Positions 895-2,211 of a DNA stretch of 4,252 nucleotides are shown piece by piece. The notes beneath the pieces are model-generated. The model was not told where the DNA came from. It was given only the letters and a program-made list of their open reading frames with translations, and ran no database searches. Source of the stretch: a virus (taxonomy: Duplodnaviria; Heunggongvirae; Uroviricota; Caudoviricetes); IMG/VR virus record IMGVR_UViG_2648501206_000008, positions 1 through 4,252 of that record; one strand, given 5' to 3'. A program made the translations under genes and the position numbers. Numbering within the stretch: the first letter of the stretch is position 1; each line of letters begins with the position of its first letter.

Positions 895-1170
895 CTACTT
901 ATTAAGGTTTATCCGTTTACTGACACTCTCTGCTTCTATTTTACGAATAGAAGTTTTATCCCGATTACAGTTAGTCAGTGCTGACAACAGACTCACATTC
1001 AAATCCAGACTGCCTCCATAGGTCAGCGGATCGGGAATGGCTGGTTGCGGGGTTTCAGCGGTCAGACTTGCCGGTAGCGGTATCACCGGAACTTGTACGT
1101 AAACTGTCCGCGTATTTCCGCAACCGGTCAGCAGCGGCAGCAGGCACAGGACGTGAAGCACAATCATCAT
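895..1170 (-). CDS. Rz1: Rz1-like outer-membrane spanin lipoprotein (about 91 aa), overlapping and extending past Rz
   Basis: In the +1 frame relative to Rz: ATG ATG at 1170..1165, then MMIVLHVLCLLPLLTGC with lipobox LLTG|C, then a proline-rich mature region (PVIPLPASLTAETPQPAIPDP). Stop TAG at 897..895, which is 160 nt beyond the Rz stop. The first 76 residues of the 167-aa track ORF lie before the lipoprotein signal and are probably not translated. Start codon uncertain (in-frame TTG and CTG lie just upstream). Confidence 0.6.
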   Translation of the reverse strand: MMIVLHVLCLLPLLTGCGNTRTVYVQVPVIPLPASLTAETPQPAIPDPLTYGGSLDLNVSLLSALTNCNRDKTSIRKIEAESVSKRINLNK

Positions 1171-1447
1171 CCGCAACAGCCATTTTGATATCTTCCTGGG
1201 TTCTCTGTGACTCCAGTGCGATCTGCTGTTTTGCATGCTGGTTAGCCTCCAGTACTGTATTGACGATTTGCAGTGATTGCAGGATGTTATTGGTAATGGC
1301 AGTTGCCAATTTGGCATTTTGTACAGCCTCATCAGCACGTTTCTTTTCGTACTGATATTTGCTGTAGTAGTGGTTGGCTGACCAGATGAAAGAACCAATG
1401 ACAGTAACGAAGAAAGCAGAGATAACCAGCTTATAGCTCAACTTCAT
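1055..1447 (-). CDS. Rz: Rz-like inner-membrane spanin (130 aa)
   Basis: ATG at 1447 overlaps the endolysin 3' end by 17 nt. N-terminal TMD (LVISAFFVTVIGSFIW) followed by a charged, Q/A/E-rich helical region. Position immediately after the endolysin. Not similar to lambda Rz by eye. Confidence 0.7.
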   Translation of the reverse strand: MKLSYKLVISAFFVTVIGSFIWSANHYYSKYQYEKKRADEAVQNAKLATAITNNILQSLQIVNTVLEANQHAKQQIALESQRTQEDIKMAVADDDCASRPVPAAAADRLRKYADSLRTSSGDTATGKSDR

Positions 1448-1907
1448 TTACCACCCCACCAGCCTCTTTAAACCGGGAAATCAGGTCGCCAATTTTATGT
1501 TCATACTGACCGTAACCTGCACCAGGTAAAGACGCCCAGATATTGCTGCAACGGTCGATTGCCTGACGAATATTGCCGCGATCAATCATCGGTAAAGCGC
1601 CACGCTCTTTAATCTGCTGTAATGCCACTGAGTCCTGGCTTCTGGGAGAGAAGTCTTTCAGCCCAAGCTGCTTGCGGTAAGCATCCCACCAACGTGAAAG
1701 AAGTTGATAACGGCCTGCAGCTGTTGATTTGAGTTTCGGGTTTAGCGTGACAAGTTTGCGAGGGTGATCGGAGTAATCAGTGAAGAGTTCGCCACCGACA
1801 ATAACGTCATAACCGTGGTTACGTGTCGGTTGTCGCCCGTTATCCGTTCCTTCTGACCATGCCACCATATCGAGGAAAGCTTTACGCTGAGGATTAAGAT
1901 TTTGCAT
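1431..1907 (-). CDS. R: Endolysin, lambda R family (lytic transglycosylase), 158 aa
   Basis: Translation MQNLNPQRKAFLDMVAWSEGTDNGRQPTRNHGYDVIVGGELFTDYSDHPRKLVTLNPKL... matches lambda R as I remember it over almost the full length, including the WSEGTD catalytic region. Same length as lambda R. SD AGGGGTG upstream of ATG 1907. The start overlaps the holin stop by 14 nt. Confidence 0.93.
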   Translation of the reverse strand: MQNLNPQRKAFLDMVAWSEGTDNGRQPTRNHGYDVIVGGELFTDYSDHPRKLVTLNPKLKSTAAGRYQLLSRWWDAYRKQLGLKDFSPRSQDSVALQQIKERGALPMIDRGNIRQAIDRCSNIWASLPGAGYGQYEHKIGDLISRFKEAGGVVNEVEL

Positions 1908-2211
1908 TTTTCACCCCTGTCAGTCGTTCCCAGAAGTACGTCAGTGCAACCGACCCCATCGCACCGCTAATCCCCGCTGTCGCGAGAATCATGTAAATAC
2001 TGAATCCACTTTCGATGCTAATCAGGCCACCAATAACACCGGTGAATCCTGATACCACTATTTGAGCCAGAGCATTTATCCAACTCCACGTTGCTTTACT
2101 CTGCTTCACATCTATCAGGTAGCGGACCAGACCGCCCCAACCTGCAATGATCAGCAAAACGAGCCAGAACGCTCCGGCAAGGCTCTCTTTTTCGTGCATA
2201 TGAATAGCCAA
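1894..2211 (-). CDS. Holin, class I topology (three predicted TMDs, charged C-terminal tail); start codon uncertain (TTG 2211 or ATG 2199)
   Basis: Three hydrophobic segments (LAGAFWLVLLIIAGWGGLV, WINALAQIVVSGFTGVIGGLISI, FSIYMILATAGISGAMGSVALTYFW) and a basic tail ERLTGVKNAKS. Directly upstream of and overlapping the endolysin. The track start at 2211 is a TTG; the first ATG is at 2199 (MHEKES..., 101 aa). Not lambda S by eye. Confidence 0.75.
   Translation of the reverse strand: MAIHMHEKESLAGAFWLVLLIIAGWGGLVRYLIDVKQSKATWSWINALAQIVVSGFTGVIGGLISIESGFSIYMILATAGISGAMGSVALTYFWERLTGVKNAKS

Follow-up and report, generated by a model that had tools for sequence, protein, structure and literature searches.

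A lysis cassette with overlapped spanin genes in an SfV-like prophage of Escherichia coli

The DNA analysed here (the window, i.e., the whole stretch of 4,252 nucleotides) encodes an endolysin closely resembling the R protein of phage lambda, placed between a holin gene and an Rz-like gene, together with a lipoprotein gene that starts inside the Rz-like gene and ends outside it. Such an arrangement raises the question of whether a complete lysis cassette with a true pair of overlapped spanin genes is present, or whether a sequencing frameshift or a chance open frame mimics one, and to what extent the cassette is a mosaic. The locus can be read, with a probability of about 0.93, as the complete lysis cassette of a lambdoid prophage of E. 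coli (SfV-like, with an HK97-type head), served by a Q-dependent late promoter. The gene identities and families, the architecture and its conservation, the mosaic junctions and the selection acting on each of the two frames are direct observations. Cassettes of this kind, their overlapped spanins and their mosaic nature are already known and are textbook matter for lambdoid and P2-like phages; the exact proteins of this cassette are also already named in public databases.

The cassette and its surroundings

The window is 100% identical to the chromosome of E. coli PEC422, where it is part of a prophage whose terminase, portal, protease and capsid genes lie on its downstream side and whose genes for Q, RusA and replication lie upstream. 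The four lysis genes (holin, endolysin, i-spanin and o-spanin) all lie on the minus strand, at the positions that the first-pass annotation had assigned to them. The features of the locus, with the evidence used for each, are the following:

895..1236, minus strand: o-spanin (Rz1/LysC-like) lipoprotein precursor, 113 aa with the more likely start codon (PF23793, phrog_456, PGAP lysC)
1055..1236, minus strand: dual-coding overlap of the two spanin genes, 182 nt with the long start of the o-spanin, 116 nt with the short one
1120..1131, minus strand: lipobox L-T-G-C, Cys codon at 1122..1120 (regular expression and translation)
1055..1447, minus strand: Rz-like i-spanin, 130 aa (phrog_214, identity to SfV Rz, synteny, topology)
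1431..1907, minus strand: endolysin, lambda R-type lytic transglycosylase, 158 aa (identity to lambda R, PDB 1am7/3d3d, phrog_90)
1894..2199, minus strand: holin, LydA-type (holin superfamily III), 101 aa (Pfam PF16083, phrog_785, PGAP "phage holin family protein")
2407..2386: second hairpin (consensus scan)
2678..2699, minus strand: hairpin resembling a terminator, with a T-run after it, between Q (upstream) and the holin gene (downstream), in a tR'-like position (consensus scan)
2805..3557, minus strand: antiterminator Q (Pfam PF03589 Antiterm, E = 1e-53; phrog_127; PGAP "antitermination protein Q")

Each of the four cassette proteins matches a lysis family in PHROG (4/4), and the NCBIfam scan returned no meaningful match for them, there being no model for any of the four. 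The scans for Rfam families (at the gathering threshold) and for tRNAs found nothing in the whole window. The Q gene, which drives late (lysis) transcription, sits upstream of the cassette and belongs to its context rather than to the finding proper; in SfV, two annotated terminators occupy the interval corresponding to the two hairpins between Q and the holin gene. A minus-strand ORF of 48 aa (878..732) directly after Rz1 has no Pfam match and no annotation. An antisense ORF of 125 aa (978..1355, plus strand) was ruled out as a gene, because the codon-position signatures fit the two minus-strand frames only.

The holin ORF extends over 2211..1894, with a likely ATG start at 2199 and an open frame reaching up to a TTG at 2211, and its stop overlaps the start of the endolysin gene by 14 nt. 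The protein matches Pfam PF16083 with 77.7 bits (cut-off 28.4), residues 14-90 aligning to profile positions 2-78 of 78, and the holins of phrog_785 with E = 1e-39. Its hydropathy profile displays three hydrophobic segments (approximately residues 8-28, 41-63 and 66-90), and the C-terminal tail is basic (ERLTGVKNAKS). It had been remarked, by eye, that this holin is unlike lambda S, and this is indeed the case: BLASTP found no match with lambda S, P2 Y or SfV S, and the profile of the lambda S holin family (PF05106), which does match SfV S, does not match it. The search for a lambda-like dual-start (antiholin) motif yielded only the TTG four codons upstream of the ATG, which is unconvincing as a second start because it adds "MAIH" and no charge. 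Likewise, the SfIV paper reports no antiholin or dual-start motif for SfI, SfII, SfIV and SfV (PMC3851460).

Over its full length of 158 residues the endolysin shares 86.7% identity with lambda R, in full agreement with its description as near-lambda R, and its identity to SfV R is 94.3%. Two structures of the lambda lysozyme, PDB 1am7 and 3d3d, match it with E = 1e-94, 1am7 being the best match, and the motif AWSEGTDNG (including AWSEGT) is aligned and identical in the two enzymes; Glu19, within AWSEGT, is the catalytic residue. The protein has no N-terminal hydrophobic segment and is soluble. The spanin pair adjoins the endolysin gene, whose stop and the start of Rz overlap by 17 nt.

The spanin pair and its two frames

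The i-spanin matches the "Rz-like spanin" family phrog_214 with E = 4e-48. Since its score against Pfam PF10828 (DUF2570) is 23.3 bits, below the gathering cut-off of 26.6, and NCBIfam has no model for it, the assignment rests on PHROG, on synteny, on the identity to SfV Rz (82.9%) and on topology; its close homologues (78-99% identity) all carry a precomputed PF10828 match and are named "DUF2570 domain-containing protein" by PGAP. The first-pass impression that Rz does not resemble lambda Rz holds insofar as the similarity is just weak; a match does exist, nevertheless, with 26% identity over 119 aa (BLASTP with composition correction off, E = 3.5e-7). The sole hydrophobic stretch (residues 5-23) is an N-terminal membrane anchor, followed by a long periplasmic helix, a linker containing Cys96, a second helix and a variable tail. 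The AF2 model places helices at residues 2-93 and 103-119 (mean pLDDT 76.5), and Cys96 is invariant in 69 unique relatives.

In the RefSeq/PGAP annotation of the locus only lysC is present, the i-spanin gene being omitted. The locus neatly illustrates the recognised difficulty of annotating overlapping spanin genes.

With respect to Rz, the o-spanin gene is read in +1, as (1447-1170) mod 3 equals 1; its end, at 895, lies 160 nt further on, counted from the first base (1055) of the Rz stop codon. Its product matches the LysC family PF23793 with 68.2 bits (cut-off 27; E = 6e-19; profile positions 2-68 of 69). A lipoprotein signal, judged by rule on the lipobox, the hydrophobic core and the +2 residue, is present: the sequence reads ...RMMIVLHVLCLLPLLTGC, followed by GNT, so that the +2 residue is Gly, and the presence of Gly rather than Asp after the lipobox Cys indicates sorting to the outer membrane. 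The absence of such a signal, which would have undermined the lipoprotein proposal, was not encountered. In all 93 sequences (the 92 related loci and the window), a TGC codon encodes this Cys at the place expected for it, within lipoboxes reading LTGC, LSGC, LNGC, LTAC, IVGC or TVGC; on inspection, four loci (L013-L015 and L095) proved to have the variant lipoboxes LNGC and TVGC rather than to have lost the lipobox. The mature protein of 75 aa, identical whichever start is used, consists of a Pro-rich extended segment and a C-terminal helix with an invariant Cys (AF2 model), and each spanin subunit thus has one invariant periplasmic Cys. The predicted single-chain AF2 models of Rz and Rz1 agree with a spanin topology. 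The exact protein (P0121) occurs on 202 public contigs under the name "Rz1-like lysis system protein LysC", and among its homologues, which form 380 clusters, the same NCBI name recurs and PF23793 is carried as a precomputed match. It had been suggested that the protein is long for an Rz1; this does not hold for the overlapped class, whose curated o-spanins range from 93 to 117 aa (SfIV 93, P2 96, SfV 112 and T5 117 aa; PMC6139136, supplement).

The conservation of this architecture was followed in 92 related loci from IMG/VR and GTDB, comprising 69 unique Rz sequences, and codon-position diversity was computed on 71 unique sequences. The frame offset of the spanin pair is always +1 and the genes are always overlapped, the extension past the Rz stop being 130-190 nt in all of the loci except two from Shigella (L089 and L090), where it is 91 nt and Rz has 144 aa; neither an embedded arrangement nor a longer Rz swallowing Rz1, both of which were sought, was found in any of the 92. 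In the part coding for Rz only, the third position of Rz codons is the most variable (0.55), and in the part coding for Rz1 only it is the third position of Rz1 codons (0.55 vs 0.17-0.24 at the other two), while in the overlap diversity is suppressed at all three positions. Along the gene, the third-position diversity of Rz drops from 0.51-0.63 to 0.15-0.21 at Rz codon 71-73, and from Rz codon 113 on the third position of Rz1 is the variable one. Both frames, therefore, are kept in the relatives and bear their own third-position signatures, i.e., both are under purifying selection, and the initial description of a lipoprotein gene that starts inside Rz in the +1 frame and runs 160 nt past its stop, overlapped and not embedded, is confirmed by the coordinates and by all the related loci.

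These data bear on two other explanations of the overlap. It might be supposed that the 130-aa Rz is cut short by a frameshift introduced in sequencing or assembly, the true form being a longer Rz with Rz1 embedded as in lambda. Rare fused or longer proteins are indeed known (P0239, 182 aa, with both PF10828 and PF23793; P0182, 174 aa; P0002, 144 aa), and the phrog_214 profile comprises 176 positions, the last 44 of which match the C-terminus of Rz1. However, Rz is exactly 130 aa long in 65 of the 69 unique relatives, as it is in nearly all of the 120 homologous clusters listed (of 732); the fused P0239 and P0182 are each found on a single contig, and they are joined in the Rz1 frame, which marks them as frameshifts of the normal arrangement and not as survivors of an embedded ancestor. 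Such an ancestor was rejected on the basis of the 92 related loci and the 732 protein clusters. Beyond the Rz stop, moreover, the variation across codon positions has the pattern of the Rz1 frame and of no other, and the overlap in all of the loci, together with the coding signatures in both frames, makes a frameshift artefact so improbable that it can be practically disregarded.

Nor is it at all credible that the +1 ORF is a chance open frame in a cassette with an i-spanin only, or with its second spanin encoded elsewhere. Mechanical lists of ORFs do contain many spurious ones, and PGAP annotates just one of the two overlapping genes here; yet the gene that PGAP retains is precisely the +1 ORF (lysC), whose identical product is so widely deposited. 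The score of 68 bits against Pfam LysC, the invariance of the lipobox Cys (TGC) and of the second Cys, and a third-position signature that is strong outside the Rz overlap argue, at the level of sequence, that this frame is more than a product of chance.

The start codon of the o-spanin

The first-pass annotation gave the lipoprotein 91 residues, with a start at 1170. This start is probably wrong: sequence conservation favours the ATG at 1236, which would give a precursor of 113 aa and a signal peptide of 38 residues. With this start, Rz codons 71-130 and the Rz stop occupy the same DNA as Rz1 codons 1-61.

The proximal ATG, at 1170 or at 1167, has its own merits. Nearly all the relatives retain, at -16 or -15 relative to the Cys, an ATG or GTG that could act as a start; a signal peptide of 16-17 residues has a typical length for a lipoprotein, whereas 38 residues is long; and the o-spanin of SfIV is shorter in the curated set (93 aa; PMC6139136). 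In that case the protein would have 91 aa, with a 16-residue signal peptide and an overlap of 116 nt, and the ATG at 1236 would have been kept for other reasons. Several lines of evidence, however, make this the less likely start, even if it deserves to be kept in mind. An ATG at -38 from the Cys is present in 70 of the 71 unique sequences, the sole exception (L046) having its upstream part replaced. The Rz codon that gives this ATG its A and T is NAT in 71/71, never the synonymous NAC, even though its first base can be any of four (His, Asp, Asn, Tyr), while the Rz NAY codons upstream of the overlap (26, 27, 54, 63 and 69) show a mixture of T and C, and codon 39 has 59 T to 6 C. The Rz third-position diversity collapses at codon 71-73 and not at codon 93. 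The long ATG has an SD-like tetramer ahead of it in 65/71 sequences, the proximal one in 0/71. Finally, the short form has no basic residue ahead of its hydrophobic core, and the long form supplies residues rich in R/K. The comparative data thus supply an argument on the start codon used by SfV-type o-spanins.

With the start at 1236, the precursor begins with a basic stretch of 22 residues whose coding DNA lies within that of the conserved i-spanin helix, and this N-terminal extension is under selection in 70/71 unique relatives. The unusually long signal peptide might do more than targeting, adding a small undescribed regulatory layer to the last step of lysis; if so, the extension could, for instance, delay or time Rz1 export or lipidation, or tie Rz1 translation to Rz translation. 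This is a speculative idea, and an unlikely one. Less likely still is that the rare Rz-Rz1 fusions (P0239 and P0182) arise from programmed frameshifting rather than from errors.

Mosaicism, mode of action and related systems

The homology to lambda is limited to the R gene (window 1456-1902, 82% nt), and the homology to loci with an SfV-type holin ends at 1898, at the holin/R junction; the mosaic breakpoints, hence, coincide with gene junctions, and the suggested shuffling of modules within the lysis cassette is real, although routine for such phages. The cassette is a mosaic put together by recombination at gene boundaries. It would be incorrect, on the other hand, to regard the R-Rz-Rz1 combination as a fresh mosaic, since it is the known block of SfV, SfII and SfIV and the holin alone differs. 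The same spanin pair is found behind four holin families (PF16083, PF05106, PF16931 and PF04971) and behind four endolysin families (lambda-R-type, GH19, PF00959 and M15). This shows that a single pair works together with four or more unrelated endolysin chemistries, in keeping with the view that the action of spanins does not depend on the mode of wall degradation.

On the basis of what is known of these families, lysis would proceed in three steps. The LydA-type holin would accumulate in the inner membrane and, at a set time, open holes in it; the lytic transglycosylase, soluble and of the lambda R type, would be released through the holes and degrade the peptidoglycan; and the two-component spanin, an inner-membrane helical Rz and an outer-membrane lipoprotein Rz1/LysC joined across the periplasm, would remove the outer membrane, most likely by fusing the inner and outer membranes. 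Prophages of E. coli are often defective, this one could carry a defect elsewhere, and the cassette might be an inert relic, intact-looking and unused, in a decaying prophage; the purifying selection described above, being measured across the family and not on this copy, has no bearing on this point. All four ORFs (4/4) are, however, intact and joined by normal overlapping gene junctions, and their surroundings retain, in intact form, Q, the terminators and the HNH, terminase, portal, protease and capsid genes, so a relic seems rather improbable.

The closest known systems are the serotype-converting Shigella phages SfV, SfII and SfIV, whose R-Rz-Rz1 block is approximately 90-92% identical to the window at the DNA level. 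The SfV proteins are 94% (R), 83% (Rz) and 80% (Rz1) identical to those of the window, and the geometry is the same: overlapped in +1, with an Rz of 130 aa and an Rz1 that ends 157 nt after Rz (160 here). The SfV-type cassette, described in PMC3851460, has the order holin-lysin-Rz-Rz1 followed by an HNH endonuclease gene, which lies downstream in the window as well, and upstream of the cassette Q and a DUF968 protein share 96% identity with SfV. The differences concern the holin (LydA-type, PF16083, vs the lambda-S-family PF05106 in SfV), the last 12 or so residues of Rz1, an AT-rich insertion of 485 bp between Rz1 and HNH in the window, and the methyltransferase region that in SfV lies between Q and the holin gene, replaced here by a zinc-ribbon ORF of 59 aa. 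In the curated spanin set of Kongari et al. (2018), the SfV counterparts are listed as "ovl", with 130 + 112 aa and an overlap of 182 nt (PMC6139136), in accordance with the overlapped class proposed for the window. The unusualness that had been implied for this architecture is not supported, because overlapped spanins are the commonest two-component class (228/528; PMC6139136).

The order S-R-Rz-Rz1 of lambda and its three-step mechanism are those of the window cassette, and lambda Rz, despite its weak similarity (26%), shares the anchor-helix-linker-helix layout of the window i-spanin; both subunits have a periplasmic Cys in lambda too. Lambda Rz1, in contrast, has 60 aa (40 aa when mature) and is fully embedded in the 153-aa Rz, whereas the o-spanin of the window is overlapped, approximately twice as long and provided with a C-terminal helix. 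Lambda S is unrelated to the window holin, in which no dual-start motif was recognised.

The holin is instead related to the P1 LydA family (PF16083, holin superfamily III), whose profile it matches end to end. In P1, LydA has the antiholin LydB and a SAR endolysin (Lyz) as its partners, whereas the holin of this cassette is paired with a soluble enzyme of the lambda R type, and no LydB-like gene is visible here.

P2 differs in its holin (Y), in its lysozyme endolysin K (only 56% identical), in the extra gene lysA and in the location of its cassette, which in this non-lambdoid phage lies amid tail genes; its LysB has no significant similarity to the window i-spanin. The likeness to P2 lies in the o-spanin. 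In LysB/LysC, the prototype of overlapped spanins, the o-spanin gene starts within the i-spanin gene in +1 and extends beyond it, as it does here. LysC belongs to the same Pfam family (PF23793), is 28.6% identical to the window o-spanin over 77 aa, and has a periplasmic part of 76 aa, compared with the 75 aa of the mature window protein. The architecture can thus be rightly called P2 lysB/lysC-style, in the family of its o-spanin as well as in its +1 overlapped layout.

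Gene order and the holin-endolysin pair

The window is identical (100%) to positions 4353057-4357308 of the E. coli strain PEC422 chromosome (NZ_CM168005.1), where it lies in the interior of a prophage. On the minus strand of this prophage, the replication and RusA genes, a gene for a DUF968/HNH-like protein, the antiterminator Q gene and a 59-aa ORF are followed by the holin, endolysin and spanin genes, and then by those for an HNH endonuclease, a P27-type small terminase, the large terminase, the portal, an HK97-type protease and the capsid.

Features of the window
410-894: AT-rich segment (31-34% GC), 485 bp, between the HNH gene and Rz1
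449..700, plus (opposite) strand: 83-aa coiled-coil ORF (phrog_38309, function unknown; weak RelB/ParD-like match, E = 0.004)
706-724: hairpin terminator in the AT-rich segment
End at 895, minus strand: lipoprotein gene (o-spanin), +1 frame relative to Rz
1447..1055, minus strand: i-spanin, Rz-like, 130 aa
1907..1431, minus strand: endolysin, 158 aa
2199..1894, minus strand: holin, 101 aa; frame open from TTG at 2211
2699-2678, 2407-2386, 2339-2323 and 2306-2285, minus (late-transcript) strand: terminator-like hairpins between Q and the holin (2285-2797)
2423-2602, minus strand: 59-aa ORF with CxxC...CxxC motifs (zinc ribbon), between Q and the holin
2805-3557, minus strand: Q antiterminator, Antiterm domain and DnaJ-type CxxCxGxG zinc-finger region

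The zinc-finger region of Q scores 30.9 bits against PF00684, just below the cut-off of 32.7, and the matches of the 59-aa ORF are all weak (Lar-like restriction alleviation phrog_6422, E = 0.002; TIGR04104, E = 0.004). The overlaps between adjacent cassette genes measure 14 and 17 nt; short overlaps of this kind are usual in lysis cassettes.

The endolysin, which the first-pass annotation had called almost lambda R, shares 86.7% identity with lambda R over its full length. Two structures of lambda lysozyme, 1am7 and 3d3d, match it at E = 1e-94 with an identical AWSEGT active-site motif. The holin had been described as unlike lambda S, and indeed no similarity to lambda S was detectable; it belongs, over its full length, to the LydA holin family (PF16083, 77.7 bits vs. 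a cut-off of 28.4) and has three hydrophobic segments.

A scan of 400-2900 disclosed 11 terminator-like sites vs. 2.0 expected from shuffles, and the hairpin cluster between Q and the holin fits Q-antiterminated late transcription, which would pass through the hairpins 2699-2678 and 2407-2386. Beyond the identification of the genes, we infer the steps of lysis from the family assignments and from the established knowledge of holin-endolysin-spanin lysis: the holin would permeabilise the inner membrane, the soluble lambda-R-type transglycosylase would then degrade murein, and the spanin complex would disrupt the outer membrane as the last step.

The overlapped spanin pair

The Rz-like protein had been judged unlike lambda Rz, and its match to it is weak (26% identity across 119 aa; E = 3.5e-7 with no composition correction). 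As first described, the lipoprotein is encoded in the +1 frame relative to Rz and ends 160 nt beyond the Rz stop; it carries an LTGC lipobox followed by Gly. All the elements of the first description were found at the locus. The lipoprotein was used as query against IMG/VR and GTDB genomes, yielding 92 related loci: the offset is +1 in all 92 and the embedded arrangement, i.e., an Rz1 within a longer Rz, which would have spoken against the first reading, occurs in none of them. The o-spanin gene extends 130-190 nt beyond the Rz stop, except in two loci (91 nt); the Cys codon of the lipobox is TGC at the same position in 93/93 sequences (window included), and Rz is 130 aa long in 65 of 69 unique sequences. 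Protein searches retrieved 732 clusters of Rz homologues, nearly all of 130 aa among the 120 listed, and 380 clusters of o-spanin homologues; an identical 113-aa o-spanin, named 'Rz1-like lysis system protein LysC' (P0121), is present on 202 contigs.

Nucleotide diversity by codon position in 71 unique sequences, which bears on whether both frames are conserved in relatives, carries the signature of each. The Rz-only part shows that of the Rz frame (third position 0.55) and the Rz1-only part that of the Rz1 frame (third position 0.55 vs. 0.17-0.24 at the others), and diversity is suppressed at all three positions in the overlap. The Rz1 frame dominates from Rz codon 113 onward, which accounts for the variable C-terminal Rz tail of the relatives. 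The findings named beforehand as refuting the first reading were therefore not obtained.

The start of the o-spanin has been reconsidered. The first-pass annotation proposed a 91-aa product from ATG 1170, and an ATG or GTG is kept almost everywhere among relatives at this proximal position, so that about one chance in four is left for translation from it. Four lines favour instead ATG 1236, the start in PGAP and in the SfV record, from which the precursor has 113 aa and the overlap 182 nt. This ATG lies 38 codons ahead of the lipobox Cys in 70 of 71 unique sequences, and an SD-like tetramer precedes it in 65/71 vs. 0/71 for the proximal one. The Rz codon providing its A and T is CAT (46 sequences), GAT (12), AAT (9) or TAT (4), never a synonymous NAC, whereas NAY codons 26, 27, 54, 63 and 69 upstream of the overlap mix T and C, though codon 39 has 59 T vs. 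6 C. Moreover, the fall in Rz third-position diversity (0.51-0.63 before, 0.15-0.21 after) lies at codons 71-73 rather than at codon 93, the site of the proximal ATG. With either start, the mature 75-aa lipoprotein is identical.

AF2 models agree with spanin topology: in Rz, a helix (2-93) including the membrane anchor, a linker (94-102) with Cys96, a helix (103-119) and a disordered tail; in the o-spanin, a signal helix, then a coil rich in Pro (38-72) and, at the C-terminus, another helix (73-112). The periplasmic part of each subunit contains a single invariant Cys, which would be compatible with disulfide-linked homodimers, as formed by lambda Rz/Rz1.

Some variants can be observed. In L089 and L090 (Shigella flexneri CP182557.1), the loci with the 91-nt extension, the i-spanin (P0002, on 22 contigs) has 144 aa, with 99% identity to the window Rz through residue 117, followed by a different, longer tail. 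The lipobox is TVGC in L095 and LNGC in three close relatives from IMG/VR (L013-L015) whose holin and endolysin are those of the window; LNGC is among the deviant lipoboxes of Kongari et al. (PMC6139136). Proteins P0239 (182 aa, with both PF10828 and PF23793) and P0182 (174 aa), each on a single contig, join Rz in one frame to the C-terminal part of Rz1 and probably reflect either sequencing errors or frameshifted pseudogenes. The profile phrog_214 (176 positions) seems to include such fusions, since the Rz1 C-terminus matches its end (132-175).

RefSeq/PGAP annotates lysC (895..1236) in PEC422 and no CDS for Rz (1055..1447; positions 7237-7430 of the PEC422 locus, L001, are window 1237-1430); in other genomes, a DUF2570 protein is annotated and lysC omitted. 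Gene callers often miss one of two overlapping spanin genes (Kongari et al. 2018, PMC6139136), and the lysC-only annotation reflects this documented bias.

Module exchange and comparison with known cassettes

The proposed module shuffling is supported by the extent of homology. DNA homology to lambda is confined to the R gene (1456-1902, 82% nt); in loci with an SfV-type holin, homology to the window ends at 1898, i.e., the holin/R junction, and in loci with the window's holin it runs from about 926-980 through 2379. In 20 loci, the spanin pair stands behind a lambda-R-type endolysin and an SfV-type holin; in eight (window counted), it stands behind the same endolysin type and the window's LydA-type holin; both partners are of other kinds in 63 loci, and two more have mixed combinations. 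Unrelated endolysins paired with it include GH19, PF00959 lysozymes and an M15 peptidase, and unrelated holins include PF16931 and P21-S-type. Of 5426 complete E. coli genomes, 73 have the whole cassette (at least 80% coverage) and 2791 have parts of it; the AT-rich segment, which looks like a moron-type insertion, is found in only 12 of the 5426, always with at least 99% identity.

The first observation is confirmed and its interpretation essentially right, except that the lipoprotein is not long for its class, because curated overlapped o-spanins measure 93-117 aa (PMC6139136). The cassette is an ordinary, already known one. The Shigella phages SfV, SfII and SfIV, whose cassette PMC3851460 describes, share the window's R-Rz-Rz1-HNH arrangement at about 90-92% DNA identity. 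SfV lacks the AT-rich segment 410-894 and has a DNA methyltransferase gene and orf47 in place of the 59-aa ORF; Rz1 departs from SfV in its last ~12 residues, as does the region downstream, and both match two other related loci (L005 and L006). The SfV spanins are overlapped (i-spanin 130 aa, o-spanin 112 aa, 182-nt overlap), the i-spanin belonging to the (SfIV, SfV) family and the o-spanin to the Mu family, within the largest spanin class (228/528; PMC6139136).
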